Assembly: GCF_964213995.1 (NCBI RefSeq)
Contig: NC_135808.1
Span: 50,282,001-50,346,000 of the forward strand
Source: Mustelus asterias
Lineage: Eukaryota
DNA: 64,000 nucleotides
Reading direction: 5' to 3'
Positions within the stretch are counted from its first letter, which is position 1. The number at the start of each line of letters is the position of its first letter. Positions 16,991 to 29,400 of this stretch are shown here, piece after piece. A program made the position numbers and the translations under genes. The notes under the pieces were generated by a model. It worked only from the letters and a program-made list of their open reading frames with translations. It had not been told where the DNA came from and did not search any database.

Positions 16991-17518
16991 TTGACCGACA
17001 TTTCTATCACCAATTAAATTATTGAAGAAAATTTATTCAACTCTGACCTTCACTTCTCACATGAGGTTGGTCTTCATATCACTTACTTTCCCAGGATACT
17101 CTCTGGATTTCTCCCTGCAGAATAAGAGTTACGAAGCAAGAAGAAAGAAAACAAAACAAAAAGGGAAAACAGCATCTCCTCCCACTCTGCACTGAATTAC
17201 CGCACTGTTCCAAATGGCCAAGTTTCAATCCCACTCTGGCTGCCTCAGTCACGCTGTCTCCCATTTCAAGTGCGCAAAGCTCAGATTTCCGGACCTTCCC
17301 TTTTTAATTCATTTTTACAGGATGTGGGGATCGCTGGCTTGGCCAACATTTATTACCCATCCCTATTTGCCCGTGAGCTGCCTTCTTGAACCGCTGCAGT
17401 CCATGAGTTGTAGGTATATCCGCAATGCTGTTAGGGAGGGAGTTTGAGGATTTTGACCCAGTGACAGTGAAGAAACGGCGATATATTTCCAAGTCAGGAT
17501 GGTGAATGAGTTGGTTGG

Positions 17519-17846
17519 TGTGGTGAACCATCTTTGGTTCCCACTAGATAGTACTGAGCCAGGGTCTGGCCAGTACTACAAGTATGTATATATGTTGCTG
17601 TTGGGGTTAGGGATGGGTTGTTCTACTTGTTGCTGTTGGAGTTAGGGTTGGGCTGTTACACCTTGTATTATAGTTATTGTGGTACATCCCAGTCGGGCTC
17701 CGCCTCCTGGGAGAGGTATAAAGGTCTCTGCTCTGTCTGGGACCCCTCAGTCTGGGATCGTGTATATAATTAGTAGCTGCCTTGTTACAGCAAATAAAAG
17801 CCTTTATTTCCTGAGCATCAAGCCTCGTGTGTGTTAACGCGCATCA
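17519..17846 (+). repeat. 5' LTR of the Gypsy element
   Basis: TG...CA, TATA-like motifs, AATAAA at 17793-17798. Confidence 0.93.
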
Positions 17847-17894
17847 ATTTTATTTGCTGTAAATAAACTCTCGTCGAAGAAAAAAAAAGAGAGT

Positions 17895-20800
17895 ATGGAG
17901 CAGATACTGAAGCCTGAACGCCTTACACTAGATCCACGTGCGGTGGGCGCCTCTAACACCTTCGACCACTGTTTGAAATGTTTTGAGGACTACCTGGCAG
18001 CCTCCGCAGCGGTCACCACAGATGATGACAGACTCCGGGTCCTCCATGCGAGGGTAAGCGACACCGTCTACCTCGCGATCCGTGCGGCCACCGACTACAC
18101 AAAGGCCCTCGAGCTTCTTAAGAAGCATTATATTAAACCGTCCAACGAAATACACGCTCGTTACCTCTTCGCCACTCGACGACGGTAGTCTGGCGAAACG
18201 ATGGAGGAATACGCGAACGAGCTCCTACAGCTAGCCAGGGTCTGTAACTGCAAAGCAGTGTCGGCAGAGCAGAATATGAACGACCTCGCTCGAGATGCGT
18301 TTGTGGCGGGAGTCGGATCATCGTACATCCGACTCAAACTACTGGAGAAAGGTAACCTTGACCTTACCCAGGCAATCGAGCTAGCGGAGATGCTGGAGAC
18401 GGCCTCCAAAAGCCTAGTACTGTATCCTGAAGACCACGTGGAGACAACGTGGCAGGAGCAGTCGCCAATCCCTCCTCGTCCCTCGGGTTCGAAATGCTGC
18501 GTAATGGCGTGCTCACACTCGGGCCAGACGACGGCAGCAGCTCCGGGCGGCCCGCGGTGTTACTTCTGTGGGGGAGCGAAGCATACTCGGCAACGGTGTC
18601 CCGCTAAAGTTGTGTTGTGCTCCGCCTGCGGTAAGAAGGGGCACTATTCGAAAGCGTGCCGATCTAAATCTGCTTCTCGGAACAGCAGTGCGGCCTGCGA
18701 TTCCTCAGAGCCCGGTTCTTCGTCGTCGACATCGTCGAGGGTTTCGTCCACGTGCGAGGCCAGGACGACGCCATTACAGTCGACGGAGTCGGAGATGTGT
18801 GACCACCAGGGGTCGCTGAGTTTGGCGCCATCACCCACGTGTGACCTATGGGAGCGGCCATGTTGGTCGGCACCGACCGCGAACGACCAGCAGGGGTCAT
18901 CCTCGTCGATTTCAGCTGCCTGCAGTGGCGCTCATGAACCAACGGTGGCGTTGATCATCCTGGACCAGGCCAAGCCTCATAGACTTGACAAATCTATGAT
19001 GGACATTCAGGTAAACGACCACTTGATTTATTGTCTGTTTGACAGCGGGAGCACTGAGAGTTTTATCCACCCAGACGCTGTGAAGCGGTGTGGACTCCGG
19101 ATTCAACCTGTCAAACAGACAATTTCTATGGCATCAAGGTCCCGGTCTGTCACCGTGCTAGGGAGTTGCGTGGTAACTTTAACGGTGCAAGGCACAGTTT
19201 ACGAGCGTTTCAAGCTCCTGGTGTTGCCGCACCTTTGCGCGCCAATACTTCTCGGACTAAACTTCATGGTCCACCTGAGGAGTGTAACCCTACAGTACGG
19301 TGGGTCACTCCCTTCGCTTTCAGTGGGAGAACAGCAGCCTCCAAAGTGCCCTGTAGCCTCTCGACGCTGAAGATTACCACACCCTCCCTGTTCCAGAATC
19401 TGGTGCCAGGCTGCAAGCCCATTGCGACTAAGAGTAGGTGTTACAGCGCTGAGGATCGGATCTTCATTCGATCTGAAGTTCAGCGGCTCCTCAAGGAAAG
19501 GATCATACAACCTAGCGCTAGTCCGTGGAGAGCGCAGGTCGTGGTGGTCAAGAGTGGGAACAAACCCCGGATGGTCATTGACTATAGTCAGACCATTAAT
19601 AGATACACGCAGCTGGATGCGTATCCCCTCCCGCGCATATCTGACATGGTCAATCAGATTGCGCAGTACCGGGTGTTCTCCACCATAGACCTCAAGTCTG
19701 CCTGCCACCAACTCCCCATTCGCCCAGAGGACCGACAATACACGGCTTTTGAGGCGGATGGTCGCTTGTATCACTTTCTCAGGGTTCCCATTGGTGTCAC
19801 CAATGGGGTCTCGGTCTTCCAGCGTGCTATGGACCGAATGGTGGACCAGAACGGGCTGCGGGCTACCTTCCCGTACCTGGATAACGTCACCATCTGCGGC
19901 TATGACCAGCAGGACCACGGCACAAATCTCCTGAATTTCCTATGCACTGCATCTCGCCTGAATCTGACCTACAACAGGGAGAAGTGTGTGTTTCGTACGC
20001 GCCGTTTAGCCATCCTCGGATACGTAGTGGAAAACGGGGTCATTGGCCCTGATCCAGACCGTATGCGCCCCCTCTCTGAACTTCCCCTGCCCACTAGTGC
20101 AAAAGCACTGAGAAGTTGCTTAGGCTTCTTCTCTTATTATGCACAGTGAGTTCCCAATTACGCGGACATAGCCTGTCCGCTCATCAAGTCCACTTCTTTT
20201 CCCCTAACACCAGAGGCCCGATTGGCCTTTGATAAATTAAAAGCCGACATCGCGAAAGCTACGATGCACGCTGTTGATGAGTCCATCCCCTTTCAGGTGG
20301 AGAGCAATGCATCTGATTTCGCCCTGGCCGCCACACTTAACCAGGCGGGCAGGCCCGTCGCCTTTTTTTCCCGCACCCTCCAAGGCCCCGAAATTCGGCA
20401 CTCCGCGGTGGAAAAGGAGGCCCAGGCCATTGTGGAGGCCGTTAGGCACTGGCGCCATTACTTGGCGGGAAAACGGTTCACCCTGATCACGGACCAGCGG
20501 TCCGTGGCGTTCATGTTTAATAACACGCTGAGGGGCAAGATCAGGAACGACAAGATCTTGCGGTGGAGAATTGAACTCTCCACCTATATCTATGACATCA
20601 TGTATCGTCCAGGGAAACTCAATGAGCCCTTGGATGCCCTCTCACGTGGAACATGCGCCAGTATACAGGAGGATCGTTTGCAGGCTCTCCATAATGACCT
20701 ATGCCATCCTGGGGTCACTCGGCTCTACCACTTTATAAAAGGCCGCAATCTGCCCTACTCGGTGGAGGACATCAGGTCCGTAACAAGAAGCTGTCGGGTT

Positions 20801-21867
20801 TGCGCGGAATGCAAACCGCACTTTTACCGACCTGACCGGGCACAATTAGTCAAGGCCACTCGTCCCTTCGAGAGACTGAGTGTCGATTTTAAGGGCCCTC
20901 AACAGATCGAAATGTGTACTTCCTCAACATCATTGATGAGTACTCGAGGTTCCCTTTTGTTGTTCCCTGCTCTGATACATCCGCTGCCACGGTTATCAAG
21001 GCATTCCGTGATCTTTTTACCCTGTTCGGGTACCCCAGCTACATTCACAGCGACAGGGGCTCGTCGTTCATGAGCGATGACTTGAGGCAATACCTGCTCT
21101 CATACGGGATTGCCTCTAGTAGAACCACGAGCTACAACCCTAGGGGTAACGGACAGGTGGAACGGGAGAATGCTACAGTCTGGAAGGCTGTCTTACTGGC
21201 GTTGAAGTCAAAAAGCCTTCCAGTCTCCCGTTGGCAAGAGGTGCTCCCTGATGCGCTCCATTCCATACGCTCACTCCTGTGTACGGCAACCAATGCTACT
21301 CCCCATGAGAGGATGTTTTCATTCCCTCGGAAGTCTTCCTCTGGGACCTCATTACCGTCTTGGTTGACGTACTCAGGACCTGTCCTCCTGCGGCGACATG
21401 TAAGGGCCCGCAAGTCCGACCCTTTGGTCGAACAGGTCCATCTCCTCCACGCCAACCCTCAGTATGCCTATGTGGCATACCCTGACGGGCGAGAGGACAC
21501 GGTCTCGATCCGAGACCTGGCGCCAGCAGGGGACGTGGAAACCCCTGTCGCTCCCATACCCCCTGTTACAACCCCCATAACTCTTGTTTCCCCACCGGAC
21601 ACGGCGCGGGCAGCATCGGGACCATTACTTAACCCTTTTACTCCCGTGTACAGCTTGCCTGAGTCCAGAGGACGGTCGCCACTTCAGGGCGTGTCGGAAC
21701 TCCATGGATTACCATCAACTCAGGGTCAACCGGCCCGTGAGTCTGTGGAGGAACAGTTGGACGTCGCCTTGAGGAGAACGCCACTGCAAGTGCCTACTCC
21801 GGTGTCATCGCCGGTATTGAGGAGGTCGCAACAACGGTGCGGTCCCCCTGACCGTCTGAACTTATAG
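17895..21867 (+). pseudogene. gag-pol: Gypsy gag-pol (disrupted by stops at 18186 and 20147 and by frameshifts)
   Basis: Gag with CYFCGGAKH..C and CSACGKKGH...C; protease LFDSGS; RT 'PRMVIDY...YLDN'; RNase H 'NASDFALAATL'; integrase HHCC and 'IHSDRG...NGQVER'. Confidence 0.92.
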
Positions 21868-21931
21868 ACTGATGACAAATTATTCTGTTTTTTTGTACCC
21901 CGCCGGCCTTTGTCTTCAAAGGAGGGGTGAA

Positions 21932-22259
21932 TGTGGTGAACCATCATTGGTTCCCACTAGATAGTACTGAGCCAGGGTCTGGCCAGTACTACAAGTATGT
22001 ATATATGTTGCTGTTGGGGTTAGGGATGGGTTGTTCTACTTGTTGCTGTAGGGGTTAGGGTTGGGCTGTTACACCTTGCATTATAGTTATTGTGGTACAT
22101 CCCAGTCGGGCTCCGCCTCCTGGGAGAGGTATAAAGGTCTCTGCTCTGTCTGGGACCCCTCAGTCTGGGATCGTGTATATAATTAGTAGCTGCCTTGTTA
22201 CAGCAAATAAAAGCCTTTATTTCCTGAGCATCAAGCCTCGTGTGTGATAACGCGCATCA
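21932..22259 (+). repeat. 3' LTR of the Gypsy element
   Basis: Direct repeat of 17519-17846, preceded by the PPT. Confidence 0.93.
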
Positions 22260-22669
22260 GTGGGGAATCTCCAGGTGATGGTGTCCCAGGTGTCTGCTGC
22301 CCTTGTCCTTCTAGGTGGTAGTGCTTGTGTGTTTGGAAGGTGCTGTTGAAGGAGACTTGGTGAGTTCCTGCAGTGTATCTTGTAGATGGTACACACGGCT
22401 GTCACTGTTCATTGGTGGTGGAGGGTTTGTGGAAGGGGTAACAATCAAGCAGGCTGCTTTGTCCTGATGGTGTCTAGTTTCTTGAATGTTGTTGGAGCTG
22501 CATTCATCCAGGCAAGTGGAGAGTATTCCATCACACTTGTGTCTTGTAGATGGTGGACAGGCCTTGGGGGTCAGGAGGTGAGCGTCTCACTGCAGGATTC
22601 CTAGTCTCTGACCTGTTCTTGTAGCCACGGTTTTCCTATGGCTCACCCAGTTCAGTATCTGGTCAATGA

Positions 22670-23345
22670 TGAAGTCGGGAATGGGTTAATGAACTTCAAT
22701 ACTCGAAGTGTCACAGTGACCTCTGTGATATTTAGAGCTTGTGTGAGAAATACTGTAGAACTCATGTTTACGTTAGGGCTTCCATGCTCATGTTTCCAGA
22801 ACAGATAAGAGCACAGCTGTTGTATGTTTTTCTGTTCAAGAATGTGGCTAATCCGCCATTTTGTATTCTTTAATTATGTATTGCTGTGTAACAATGGACG
22901 CCTATATCTCTGCCTTTTGTGACGTATTATGATACCTTCATATATATTCATCATAACCTGTACCGATATACATTATACAAGTACCTACGAACGTATATAA
23001 ATTGTTGTATGCCAATTAACTTGTTTGTGCGAAGACTGTAACTTTGTACATTAGTAAGATACCCCACCTGTGCTCACAGAGAACAACAACACTCACGGCC
23101 TTGGGATAACCGTGAAGAAAACACCAAGGCAGCAAGGTTCACACAGGAAGATGTGCAACCGCCTGGGAACCTGTGAGCCTGGGAAACTGCGGACTTGCAA
23201 GGTGGGGCATAAATGTATGTGTTTAGCCTGTATTTGCTGAGACATCTGAGGCCATGTTAGGCATCGGACGGTCTCCCACAATTGTGCAAATAAACCAATG
23301 TATTTTGACCTACGAATAGACTCAGAGGTATCTTTACCTGCGACG
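22670..23345 (+). repeat. Probable 5' LTR of an endogenous retrovirus
   Basis: Begins with TG where the host LINE sequence stops; TATA-like at ~22994; AATAAA 23289-23294; ends just before the PBS. No second copy is visible in the window. Confidence 0.6.
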
Positions 23346-23347
23346 AA

Positions 23348-23365
23348 TGGTGCCGAAACCCGGGA
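23348..23365 (+). promoter_or_regulatory. ERV primer-binding site, tRNA-Phe
   Basis: TGGTGCCGAAACCCGGGA is complementary to the 3' 18 nt of vertebrate tRNA-Phe. Confidence 0.9.
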
Positions 23366-24451
23366 CTCTTTACGGGACCAGTCGAATGGCCACGAATGGG
23401 AGACCGGAATAGTTACTGAACTTGATGAAGTGGGTCAAAATACATTGGGTGACCATCTGTGATGAGAGAGTGTCTGAACTGATGAAAGACGTCTGAACTG
23501 AGCACATACGGACAAGGAGGCAATTGGCTCTGACACCCTGCCGTAAACTGACTGTTAAGAGCAGGAATCTCCCACACTGATGTTCGGATTTGAAATGGGT
23601 GTCAGGGTTGCCTGAGGTGTGATGTTCAGACGTGAGTGATGAGTGATAGATAGAGACTGTCTGAGTGGTCCCGGAGTGGAAGGAAAAGCCTTCATGTGAA
23701 AGCCAGCTGAATAAAAATATTGTGTAAGTGGTGGTACGGAGGGATCTGATCACCCCTGACAGGTATCACCGAACTCAGATAAGAGAAACCTGGGAGGGAG
23801 AGAGCGAGAAAGGAGATGAGAAGACTCCAAGGTGGTGAGTATGACCTTATCAATGATATGGCGGGACAAGGACAGTGGGGCCCGGGGTCCCTGATACCTG
23901 AATATATAATTAAGAGGGACAAACTCATTAAACAGATGATAAAAGGGGGATCGGATTTAGACCACCCGCTAGACCAATAATGAAAGTGGTTGGAAAAAGA
24001 AAGGAAAGATAGAACTAAGAAAATTGGGGTTCTCTTAGTTCACCAATTGGCTGGATTAATTGGACAGGTCTCAGTCTCGAGTAAGAAATGGGCTGACGAC
24101 AAAGCAAAAATTAAAATGTTGGAAACACGCGATAGCAAATTAGAGAAGCGGAACCAACTTTTAGAGGACCCTGCCGGGGGATTCTTGCTTCCCTATGGGC
24201 CGGCCGTACAACCCACGGCACCAGTGGGAGACCCTGATGAGGAAGAGGTCCATGATCTCGCTCCCATAACTCGGACCGGGACGTTACAGCATCCCACTGC
24301 CCGATATAAACCCTTTACCCCAGGTGAACGACAACAGATTTTTGGCACCCCTGGGAAGGCTCCAGCCCCGGAGTAACAATCGCAAATTTTGGGCAGAACT
24401 GGACACCCTTTGGGTTGGACACCAGTTACATTTGCGGGATATACACCAGTT

Positions 24452-25445
24452 AGAACATAGAACATAGAACATAGAACATTACAGCGCAGAACAGGCCCTT
24501 CGGCCCACGATGTTGCACCGACCAGTTTAAAAAAAAAAACTGTGACCCTCCAACCTAAACCAATTTCTTTTCGTCCATGAACCTATCTACGGATCTCTTA
24601 AACGCCCCCAAACTAGGCGCATTTACTACTGATGCTGGCAGGGCATTCCAATCCCTCACCACCCTCTGGGTAAAGAACCTACCCCTGACATCGGTTCTAT
24701 AACTACCCCCCCTCAATTTAAAGCCATGCCCCCTCGTGCTGGATTTCTCCATCAGAGGAAAAAGGCTATCACTATCCACCCTATCTAAACCTCTAATCAT
24801 CTTGTATGTTTCAATAAGATCCCCTCTTAGCCGCCGCCTTTCCAGCGAAAACAATCCCAAATCCCTCAGCCTCTCCTCATAGGATCTCCCCTCCATACCA
24901 GGCAACATCCTGGTAAACCTCCTCTGCACCCTCTCCAAAGCCTCCACATCCTTCCTGTAATGTGGGGACCAGAACTGCACACAGTACTCCAAGTGCGGCC
25001 GCACCAGAGTTGTGTACAGTTGCAACATAACGCTACGACTCCTAAATTCAATCCCCCTACCAATAAACGCCAAGACACCATATGCCTTCTTAACAACCTT
25101 ATCTACTTGATTCCCAACTTTCAGGGATCTATGCACACATACACCTAGATCCCTCTGCTCCTCCACACTATTCAAAGTCCTCCCGTTAGCCCTATACTCA
25201 ACACATCTGTTATTCCTACCAAAGTGAATTACCTCACACTTCTCCGCATTAAACTCCATCCGCCACCTCTCGGCCCAACTTTGCAACCTGTCTAAGTCTT
25301 CCTGCAAACTACGACACCCTTCCTCACTGTCTACCACACCACCGACTTTGGTGTCATCAGCAAATTTGCTAATCCACCCAACTATACCCTCATCCAGATC
25401 ATTAATAAATATTACAAACAGCAGTGGCCCCAAAACAGATCCCTG
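24452..25445 (-). mobile_element. Young 5'-truncated CR1-type LINE inserted in ERV gag
   Basis: Uninterrupted 292-aa ORF2 C-terminus (KFADDTK), (AGAACAT)n tail, TSD AGTT (24448-51 / 25446-49). Confidence 0.93.
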
Positions 25446-25852
25446 AGTTGGTACGGGCTGTTTGCCCGTGGGATAAGTGGAGACTATTGGGTGACGGTGG
25501 GGTCCAGGCTAATGTCGCTGACCAAGCTCGGTTGGATTACCGAGGCGGAAGGTGGACGTACGCGACAGAGACAACCGCCGAGATCGAGGCAATGATTGAG
25601 CCATTTACTCGGTTTAAGGCGGAAGTCCAATGAGTCTTGGGTAATGCACCAACCAATTGGTCCAGACTTACCAATATTAAACAACAAAGGGGTGAAGGAG
25701 CCTCCGAATTTGGGGAACGACTCTGTAGAGTATACCAAGAACGTTCGGGAATACCCGAACAGATAGAGCCTTTTTCCAAGCATTAAAAGATGGGCTATCG
25801 CCAGCTCACCAGAAAATCCTTAAAATGGGAGTTCTCAATACCCAGGCTTATG

Positions 25853-26137
25853 ATAGAAACCCTACAGTGCAGAAGGAGGCCATTCGGCCCATCGAGTCTG
25901 CACCGACCACATTCCCACCCAGGCCCTACCCCCACATATTTTACCCGCTAATCCCTCTAACTACACATCTCAGGGACAATTTTTAACCTGGCCAATCAAC
26001 CTAACCCGCACATCTTTGGACTGTGGGAGGAAACCGGAGCACCCGGAGGAAACCCACGCAGACATGAGGAGAATGTGCAAACTCCACACAGACAGTGACC
26101 CGAGCCGGGAATCGAACCCAGGACCCTGGAGCTGTGA
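25853..26137 (-). mobile_element. HE1/V-SINE-like SINE inserted in ERV gag
   Basis: V-domain core; nearly identical to 34820-35148. Confidence 0.88.
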
Positions 26138-26439
26138 ATTAGTAGAATGGGCATCTGGAATTAGAGATGGACCAGATGAGAAACCATACCCACGAATAAA
26201 ACAGGAAACAGTTAGTGCAAACAGTGGAGGGGCTAAACCCAAGGGTGCGTGCTATAATTGTGGGAAACCGGGTCACTTTGCCAGAGGCTGTAGAGCTCCA
26301 AAGGGGGGCAGTGGAAAAGCCCCTACCTGCCTGTTTTGTAATAAGGTTGGCCACACTGAGGCCACCTGTTGGAGCAAGCACGGCAGACCGAGTCAACTGC
26401 TTCGCCCTCCCCTCATTGACGAGGGAGGGAATTGACGGG

Positions 26440-29400
26440 AGGCAGCCCCCACAAGCCTGGGCACAAAAGAGGGTAGAATCTACGTGTCTGCACTAGTAGG
26501 GGGAAGGCAATGTGAAATGCTGGTGGACACGGGAGCCTCCATATCTATCACTGATCTACCCTTGCCCACCACCAATAAAATGATCTATATAAGGGGTGTT
26601 AACGGACAGAAGACCCCTGCCTACTTAAGTGAAACCACCCTAGTAGAAATTAATAACCTGTATATACCTATGCGATTTTACGTATGTAGAAATAATGAAG
26701 GAACTATTAAGGGAAATGACCTAATGAAGGAATACAAAGTCTGAATAGATTGTGGGAAAGGTGAATTGATTTGGCCCCGCCCCGATGGGAGAAAAGACAG
26801 GGTAGGAACATATGTAAACCATTTAGGGACCATCCATGCAGCATCTGCAACGGGACGTGACTGGCAGTTAGAAGGTACTGGATTTGGCGCCATCTGCGCC
26901 TCCGTCCCCGGTGTGTGGGCGGAAACGAGACTGGATACTGGATTCGTCAAAATTGACCCTATAATAGTGGTAGGGCCAGAACATAAACCACATCGGCAAA
27001 ACCCGATTAAGCCCAAAGCCAAAAAGGCAGTGGAGGAAATTGCGACGGGATTGGTAAAGAGAGGGATCCTACGGGAAACCACTCGTACCACCAACTCCCC
27101 CACCTGGCCCGGTGCCTAAACCGGACGGGAGCTATAGATTAACCATTGATTATACAGCTTCAAATAAAGTGACCCCCAAGCTACACCCCATCGTGGCCTC
27201 GCCCCTCCACCATTTTAAACGGGTTGTCACCATCCCATGGAATCTTCACGGGATTGGATATCGCCAACGGTTTGTCGTCCATTCCCCTGGACCCTAATTC
27301 GCAAGATAAATTTGCATTTACCGTGGGCGATAAGCAGTGCACATGGACTAGGCTCCCGCAAGGCTTCCATAACAGCCCGGCTATATTTCACCGGGTAATG
27401 AGTAAGGTATTAGAACAGGTGGAAGTCCCAAAAGGGAGCACAATTCTGCAGTATGTAGATGATATCTTAATAGCCTCCGAAACTAGAGCAGAACATCAGA
27501 CGGTGCTATACTCAGTCTTGAAACACTTAGAAGAACAGGGACTAAAGGCGAGCCCCAGGAAAGCCCAAATAGGGAAAGAGCGGGTGTTATATTTGGGACA
27601 CCTGATATCCCAGGGGACCAAAGAAATGCCATTGGACAGGAAAACGGCCATTCAGCAAATGCCAAGACCAGTAACCGTCCGAGGGGTCAGGAAGGTTTTG
27701 GAACTGTTTAACTAAAGTTGCAACTTTATACTGGAATTTGCCAGGCTAGCCGAACCAATACAAAGGCTAGTAAAAGGGGGGAAACCCACGCTTGAGGTTA
27801 TAGAGTGGGGATCAGAACAGGAAGAGGCACCTCGTAAACTAAAAGCAGAACTAATGACAGCTCCGGGACTTGGACTGCCCAATGCTAATAAAGATTTTCA
27901 CATCTATTGTAATAATGAGGGGGGGTTTTATTCAGCAGTAGTTACACAGGTCCATGGGGACAAGTAGCGGCCAGTGGGTTATTATTCCACAGCGGAGGGC
28001 CCCGTAGTAGCCGGGTTGCCCAGATGTATAGCCGCACTGGATTGAGAGGCATGGGCAGTAAGGGTCAGTGAGCCCATCATAATGACGGGGAATATTGTTT
28101 TGCTCACCAAACACACCTTAGTGGAAATGCTGAACACAGGAAAATTGCGGTCTGTCTCAAATGTGAGAAGGGCAAAGTGGGAGGCAGTGCTTCTCCCACC
28201 CACTAAGTCCATCACCATTGTACGAGACATGGGAACGAACCCCGCAGAAGGAATGTTAGGTGAAGGGGACCCACACAACTGTGGGGACGTAGATGAGGAG
28301 GTAGACGAAGGTAGAATAAAAGATGTGTCCCTGGAGGCACCAGATATGGTCCTATTTGTGGATGGATCACGGAAATATGTAGATGGGTCACCACGAACAG
28401 GATGGGCGGCAGTGAATGCGGATTTACAAATTGTTCAAGCAGGAAGAATAGAGGGAGGCATGTCAGCGCAAGTAGCGGAACTGGTAGCCTTGACTCAGGA
28501 TTTTACAGAGGCTGCGGGGAAAAGGGTCAACATTCACACCGATAGTAGATATGCGTTTGGAGTTATACATGACTATATGACAGTTTGGGGGAGAAGGGGA
28601 TTTATCACAATGGGAGGCACTCCAATTAAACATGGCCAGATAATAACAACCTTATTGGGAGCCAGCGAGCTCCCATCGGAAGCCGCAGTATTGAAGGTAA
28701 AAGCACACCACAAGGAACCAGATAAGCAAAGTCCTGAGTGGTATATGTTTAAGGGAAACCAGGCAGCCGATAGAGCGGCACGGGGGGGGGGGGGGGGTAT
28801 GGAGATTAAATGATAAAGTCCGAGCCCCGGAATGTATCCAGCATACTCTGATGCGGTTACATCATGGGCTGTCACATGTGGGGAGGGATGCCACGGTGAC
28901 CAGTGTGGGGAAGGAATGGTGGTGGAAAGGAATGGGACGGGACATTGCCCGATATTGTCACCGGTGCATAACCTGTGCACAGTATAACCCTGGAAGACCC
29001 GTAAAAATCAAGATGGGGCACCAGCCTCGCCCTAAGGGTCCCTGGGAACACCTGCAAGTTGACTTTACAGGACCTCTCCCGCAGTCACACGGGAGAACCT
29101 GCTGCTTGGTAATTATTGACCAATTCACCAGATGGGTAGAAGCATTCCCGATGAAAAACTGTACTGCCACTACAGTGGCCAGAATACTAGCTGAGGAAGT
29201 TATCCCAAGATGGGGGGTGCCTTTGCAAATAGACTCCGATCAAGGCACGCACTTTACGGGGAAGGTTGTAAAAACCACATGTCAACTGATGGGGATAAGA
29301 CAGATATTTCACATACCCTACCACCCTCAAAGCTCGGGGATGGTGGAACGTATGAATCGGACACTTACGATCTCCTAGGCAAAGGCAATGCAGGAATCAG

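Follow-up and report, generated by a model that had tools for sequence, protein, structure and literature searches.

How does a retrotransposon begin its minus-strand DNA when no tRNA site follows its 5′ LTR? The question is raised by a Gypsy element of Mustelus asterias, located in a stretch of 64,000 nucleotides (NCBI RefSeq assembly GCF_964213995.1, contig NC_135808.1, positions 50,282,001 to 50,346,000; hereafter the window, in whose coordinates positions are given). The original prediction was that the element primes itself, by way of a perfect complement to the poly(A) region of its own LTR. We put self-priming of the minus strand, with either of the two copies of the complementary LTR segment (the arm) as primer, at a probability of about 0.87, and the clade to which the element belongs likely primes its minus strand with its own RNA, not with a tRNA. 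The specific version in which the arm of the 5′ R region pairs with the primer-binding site (PBS), undergoes cleavage by RNase H at WTAAA/RCC and primes from the resulting 3′-OH seems to us a good bet on the sequence patterns described below.

Structure and placement of the element

The element spans 17519-22259 (Table 1) and its two 328-bp LTRs are 98.5% identical. It displays TG...CA LTRs, a polypurine tract (PPT), and a target duplication within the 4-6 bp range of Ty3/Gypsy elements, and its domains follow the Gypsy order (PR-RT-RH-IN), not the Gmr1 layout with integrase before RT. Among solved structures, its RT was nearest to Ty3 (119 bits, versus 79 for caulimovirus and 49 for MLV). Two stops (18186 and 20147) and frame changes near 19360 and 20893 interrupt the gag-pol frame, and relatives in the same genome have a single open frame of 1356-1515 aa; the window element has thus decayed, but the Gypsy family it comes from is young and abundant.

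Table 1. Features of the Gypsy element and its borders in the M. asterias window
Feature	Position	Strand	Remark
Left target-site duplication	17514..17518	.	one mismatch versus right copy
5′ LTR	17519..17846	+	TG...CA, 328 bp
Conserved TATA box, predicted promoter	17717..17722	+	
Conserved initiator-like motif, putative	17747..17752	+	predicted start A17749
TATATAA, box of the original prediction	17763..17769	+	not kept in sister subfamilies
Putative primer arm, 15 nt	17785..17799	+	complementary to PBS; AATAAA at 17793-17798
Predicted cleavage point	between 17799 and 17800		clade-wide WTAAA/RCCT junction
Remainder of R plus U5 (loop)	17800..17846	+	
Spacer, single base A	17847..17847	+	A in 27/29 families, T in 2/29
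Self-complementary PBS, putative	17848..17862	+	
gag-pol	17895..21867	+	Gag with two knuckles, protease, RT (YLDN), RNase H, integrase
PPT	21918..21931	+	
3′ LTR	21932..22259	+	second arm copy at 22198-22212
Right target-site duplication	22260..22264	.	

The insertion locus is present in triplicate with a common flank (C8, at 50.30, 50.53 and 50.60 Mb; L001-L003), representing a segmental duplication, and the target duplication in the paralogous copy L001 is a perfect 5-mer. As read off the sequence, the element appears to be nested in a LINE-like repeat (about 17300-17518 and 22260-22600). Positions 22700-28400 are occupied by a decayed endogenous-retrovirus-like element, interrupted by a CR1-type LINE near 24460-25440 and bearing an ordinary TGG-starting primer site at 23348, which we take to be of the tRNA-Phe type. 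A separate Gypsy lineage of the same genome likewise has an ordinary TGG-starting PBS.

Placement in a lineage other than chromodomain-bearing Tf1/sushi had been suggested as well, and the part of this proposal that found support is the lack of a chromodomain: the window gave none, nor did any of the 41 relatives in the alignment, the majority being full-length. The CCHC knuckles noted originally are present as two Cys/His knuckles in Gag (Pfam zf-CCHC below cut-off), a twin arrangement that presumably resembles Mag. The RT motif (RT at 19358-20146) is YxDN rather than YxDD, as in 101 of the best 120 homologous proteins, out of 1402 recovered at E ≤ 1e-30, and in 68 of the 79 loci analyzed below; our literature search returned no paper pairing 'YLDN' with 'retrotransposon'. 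In a quick tree whose outgroups were the shark's tRNA-primed Gypsy elements together with Gmr1-like and ERV sequences, built with no Tf1/sushi sequence and leaving out L115, all 48 clade rows grouped together (SH-aLRT 99), apart from the outgroups. Candidate chromovirus references were set aside: SH3_Tf2-1 matches were Gmr1-like or ERV, integrase matches belonged to another Gypsy lineage, and of 17 Chromo matches the one inspected (L254) looked like a host exon.

Relatives of the window element occur in many marine animals, and the named hosts among the best 120 proteins were sharks, rays, two cnidarians and one nematode. Shark and cnidarian RTs were ~62-64% identical, and no bony-fish name occurred among the named matches in these best 120. 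Horizontal transfer is a possible scenario. Six contigs assigned to bacterial MAGs (L111-L116) carried animal-type Gypsy elements and are likely host contamination. A search of viral contigs recovered no relatives, and one of the ESM Atlas returned generic Gag clusters only.

Complementarity of arm and primer-binding site

The window sequence contains the 15-nt perfect match as originally noted: the site beginning one base past the CA of the LTR is the exact reverse complement of the arm, in the polarity needed for priming. A match arising by chance might be expected from an A/T-rich arm with an A-run common to the families, yet when the LTR was shuffled 20,000 times, runs anchored at 17848 reached 9 nt a single time and never 10 nt or more, and the exact LTR/PBS junction was present in 451 copies genome-wide. 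Chance is already refuted as an explanation, as is an assembly artefact, on which the insertions described in the next section also bear.

A second alternative is that the primer is a tRNA, or a fragment of one, and that the LTR match is secondary; the host tRNA set was covered by a sample (44 sequences, 11 anticodon types), so a matching tRNA may lie outside it. However, the site lacks the TGG start, as originally observed, and its longest match to these tRNAs was 7 nt (rows counted: window, L118 and L120). An Rfam search over 17500-17950 gave no tRNA match, and many differing PBS sequences exist in a single genome, each tracking its own LTR. Priming by tRNA is, in our view, very improbable.

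The 15-bp arm/PBS duplex was part of the minimum-energy fold and of the centroid fold alike, with a mean pair probability of 0.93 when the PBS was present; fold z-scores were -4.4 to -5.0 when the RNA began at 17785, and -1.6 when it was lengthened to begin at 17749. Two competing 7-bp A/T hairpins had been pointed out and do exist, but the duplex outcompetes them once the PBS is present (both ≤0.01). The hairpin at 17792-17809 predominated (0.92-0.93) only prior to PBS synthesis and in the 3′ LTR, and both hairpins were missing in the sister subfamilies compared with the window.

Conservation was examined across 79 loci, comprising the window, 30 loci from its own genome and 48 from elsewhere. 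The latter were drawn from 86 loci on metagenome and genome contigs, of which 58 had a gag start and 10 were dropped (five near a contig end or mis-anchored, five without the junction motif). The start of each site was chosen by a short motif, taking the best candidate where there were several, and loci were clustered at 90% RT identity with the best member representing each cluster (RT 48-94% identical to that of the window). Of the 12 bases that open the site, 11 or 12 paired with the element's own LTR in 75/79 loci and 29/32 clusters, leaving failures in four and three, respectively, versus 44 of 992 pairs when sites were compared with the LTRs of other families. Where the LTR boundary was fixed independently by an LTR pair (16 outside loci), exact runs of 10-19 nt started 1-2 nt past it.

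The complementarity also covaries, as the original prediction required of relatives. Positions -5 to -10 each showed three or four Watson-Crick pair types, and pairing reached -13 in 25/29 families and had faded by -17. Shark subfamilies with ~93% RT identity differed in their arms, and each matched its own PBS over 13-16 nt through full compensatory changes. A hand count at position -14, on 100 of 357 rows plus a second set of 83 that reflect lineages and not independent events, gave ~142 loci with arm and PBS both changed, 10 with the arm only and ~63 with the PBS only; because the ~63-locus subfamily spread with its mismatch, primer-based correction would be incomplete at the edge. Nine PBS-mismatch copies were rejected as separate cases since their flanks were common to all, indicating one host-amplified locus.

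In contrast to this variation, the 3′ junction of the arm was fixed as WTAAA followed by RCCT, with A at -1 in 29/29 families and R, C and C at +1 to +3 in 28/29, 27/29 and 27/29, which provides an exact predicted cut site. A second helix of at least 4 bp, starting from the first base past the arm, was found in 26/29 families versus 8.5 ± 2.1 in shuffles; in the window's own copy and subfamily it comprises 2 bp only. The arm/PBS complementarity is real and conserved, and most likely a signal for self-priming.

It had also been suggested that the pairing masks the 5′ poly(A) signal. In its full form, this alternative holds that the duplex hides that signal or circularises the RNA and that the primer is a protein or an unknown RNA, in keeping with the canonical A(A/T)TAAA in the arm of 19/29 families and with an arm predicted to be fully paired in the 5′ context. 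Yet the duplex is retained in the 10/29 families without a canonical arm hexamer, and for the window subfamily pairing of the hexamer is predicted within the 3′ LTR as well (unpaired 0.07 versus 0.02), so that masking has at most a side role. In addition, L071 compensates within its A-run, and the one-base register to the LTR end is held in all, with no other primer site. That masking or circularisation is the whole function is improbable.

Less of the predicted promoter was retained. The TATATAA box is located where it had been reported, but was absent from the five other aligned LTRs, being subfamily-specific, and it is only 22 nt upstream of 17785, the transcript start proposed from it. TATAA (17717) and TCAGTCTG (17747) were invariant in 6/6 aligned shark LTRs at a spacing of 32-33 nt. 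The start is therefore predicted at 17749, 36 nt further 5′ than proposed, lying 32 nt past the TATA and 51 nt ahead of where the primer ends (50-53 nt upstream of the arm 3′ end across the six LTRs), and similar motifs were present in L143 and L117, which are outside the alignment. The shark arm would then probably be inside R, about 36 nt from the RNA 5′ end.

Invertebrate LTRs had no TATA at a common distance. An initiator-like motif was often present at -13 to -8, with G at -10 in 26/29 families, and could specify a primer of 11 nt as in Tf1, yet most families pair as far as -13. A splice-acceptor-like pyrimidine tract plus AG was observed ~25-75 nt 5′ of the primer end in L076, L080, L081, L065, L094 and L115, and may serve a Gag-only spliced RNA. 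A primer built by splicing was rejected, as the pairing crosses the arm's AG, a dinucleotide that subfamilies B and C do not have.

Fold-back insertions and the proposed priming mechanism

We searched the genome for the LTR end, spacer and PBS followed by the reverse complement of the LTR upstream of the arm. Two such patterns yielded 38 and 21 junctions, 59 in total, all of which were inspected, while reversed-pattern controls yielded none. Forty of the 59 were palindromes of 480-615 bp with two U3 ends (one split by a later insertion), consisting of a whole LTR, the A, the PBS, and an inverted U3 stopping exactly at the first LTR base. Perfect 5-bp duplications flanked 36 of the 40 (34 distinct insertions), two had 4/5 matches and two were unclear. 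Among the remainder, five had the complement extended to 21-31 nt before returning to the gag leader or jumping, one reached the U3 end and then jumped, ten had a truncated or rearranged left side, and three read through the PPT; seven of the eight short-extension and PPT-read-through cases were inside perfect duplications. The short extensions may offer a route by which paired length varies between families.

These perfect target duplications show that the rearrangement predates integration, and the exactness of the U3 ends agrees with plus strands primed at the PPT, as expected from standard LTR replication. Fold-back arms have diverged in the manner of LTR pairs, a further point against assembly artefact. 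The insertions are fossils of reverse transcription, in which the arm/PBS pairing served to start DNA synthesis. Equivalent products would arise from any other primer RNA with the arm sequence. They are rare in the window subfamily, at 13 versus 451 ordinary junctions.

We propose that transcription would start at the conserved TATA/Inr, at about 17749, and that the 13-15 nt arm of the 5′ R folds back on the PBS directly after U5, with a second helix stacked on the first at the cut junction in most families. The RNase H of the RT, the nuclease that we infer, would cut the RNA behind the arm's last A, at the WTAAA/RCC junction, and the freed 3′-OH would prime DNA one base outside the CA of the LTR, giving a ~48-nt strong-stop DNA for transfer to the 3′ R. 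Later, plus-strand synthesis would copy the primer and leave the PBS as a single-stranded tail; this return of primer sequence to the PBS would explain the joint change of arm and PBS. Because the tail is complementary to the arm, it could sometimes anneal there and not to the minus strand, and its extension through U3 would yield palindromic insertions with two U3 ends. A single-stranded PBS tail is reported, in the portion of the source available, to be retained in ~50% of Tf1 cDNA molecules (PMC11042837).

The alternative within self-priming is that the primer is the arm's 3′ copy. The same RNA, or one packaged with it, would be cut at its 3′ end, again at the WTAAA/RCC junction, and would prime at the PBS while still carrying U3. 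Several features of the fold-backs speak for it. They run seamlessly into U3, which the RNA carries only at its 3′ end, and 3 of 38 continue through the PPT into the integrase region, including up to ~570 nt of internal sequence, and need a template other than strong-stop DNA that contains U3, PPT and internal sequence. Moreover, L301 bears eight arm differences whose alleles are found in other copies, and appears to derive from two templates. Finally, none of the 59 stops at the predicted cap. As a start at 17749 would also leave 36 unpaired primer nucleotides, either transcription starts elsewhere or the primer is trimmed. However, a primer with U3 attached offers no natural stop to the plus strand, which is at odds with the rarity of fold-backs, shared alleles were not enriched in fold-back arms (23/117 non-CpG differences versus 6/21 in ordinary LTR pairs), and snap-back or mis-transfer to a partner RNA yields the same products. 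We consider priming by the 3′ copy unlikely, and rather doubtful the composite proposal that the YxDN animal Gypsy clade is a self-priming origin apart from Tf1/sushi whose primer is the 3′ end of its own or a partner RNA, cut past the hexamer with U3 attached, so that the palindromes are read-through copies. Priming by the 5′ arm is the version we carry forward.

Two related searches were made. L141, a candidate for a primer copy retained after the 3′ LTR, proved to be a chance match. Of five PPT-LTR-PBS matches, four were tandem elements sharing an LTR (L237-L240, with one LTR in common) and one, of 8 nt, may be chance. The tandem LTR-sharing layout has been reported for Tf1/Tf2, in the part of the source drawn upon (PMC11042837).

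Comparison with known self-priming systems

If correct, our reading would point to a further origin of self-priming, in a widespread non-chromodomain animal clade that would presumably escape control by tRNA fragments and that tRNA-based annotation would score as having no PBS. In the form of fold-back insertions, a self-complementary PBS leaves a genomic signature that can be counted and for which any genome can be screened without RNA work. Neither self-priming in an animal Gypsy clade without a chromodomain nor palindromic insertions of this kind were the subject of any title or abstract returned by a full-text literature search that covered few subscription journals or Repbase reports.

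The comparisons below draw on portions of the cited sources. Tf1 of fission yeast has been shown to self-prime, and the same has been ascribed to chromoviruses as well as to a few lineages of plants (PMC4600332, 10.1101/2022.12.06.519325, PMC5341516, PMC6317226). Tf1/sushi is not the only lineage in which self-priming can arise: self-priming was predicted from LTR-PBS complementarity for the plant TAR (Houba, Osr-1) Ty1/copia and Tcn1 lineages, as we do here, although those are copia or chromovirus elements of plants (PMC6317226). A further candidate for a matching clade, 'Selgy', was discarded as a plant lineage. Skipper of Dictyostelids, GalEa and biv-TRIM resemble our clade in having no TGG-type PBS (PMC5006619, PMC6934838). 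However, Skipper is described as having no complement in its LTR (PMC5006619) and the inverted repeats of GalEa and biv-TRIM are internal (PMC6934838), whereas the complement of our clade is in the LTR and covaries. Unlike tRNA-primed Gypsy elements (Mag, CsRn1, Gmr1, errantiviruses), the window PBS has neither a TGG start nor a match to the 3′ end of a sampled tRNA. The Mag lineage and unnamed mollusc and annelid MolGy clades are, like ours, non-chromodomain metazoan Gypsy (PMC6238403, PMC8556966). The main text of PMC6238403 on mollusc and annelid Gypsy, in the portion available, does not mention 'primer', and our clade may already be named in the supplements of either study.

The closest parallel in sequence logic appears to be Tf1 itself. 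As in Tf1/Tf2 (S. pombe), Tj1, Tosmo and Tf1/sushi generally, there is no tRNA site and the PBS is complementary to an R segment of the element's own 5′ LTR (PMC4600332, 10.1101/2022.12.06.519325, PMC5341516). A cut beside the duplex would be needed to free a 3′-OH, and 5-bp duplications and, in many members, a single ORF are shared features. The shark-type clade differs from Tf1/sushi in its exact pairing of mostly 12-18 nt, in an arm that overlaps the poly(A) hexamer, in a second helix that is usually a local hairpin, and in hosts that include cartilaginous fish, cnidarians and a nematode. The three-duplex 'pretzel' of the Tf1 type was not found, with an extra helix in 26/29 families and a probability of 0.000 for cross-pairing past the PBS in the window. 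We keep the clade apart from Tf1/sushi because of this, because all 41 relatives lack a chromodomain, because of the YxDN RT, accompanied by a two-knuckle Gag, and because the shark primer is probably internal and not 5′-terminal as in Tf1. The clade most likely represents a variant of a known self-priming mechanism, and its genomic fossils make that mechanism testable.
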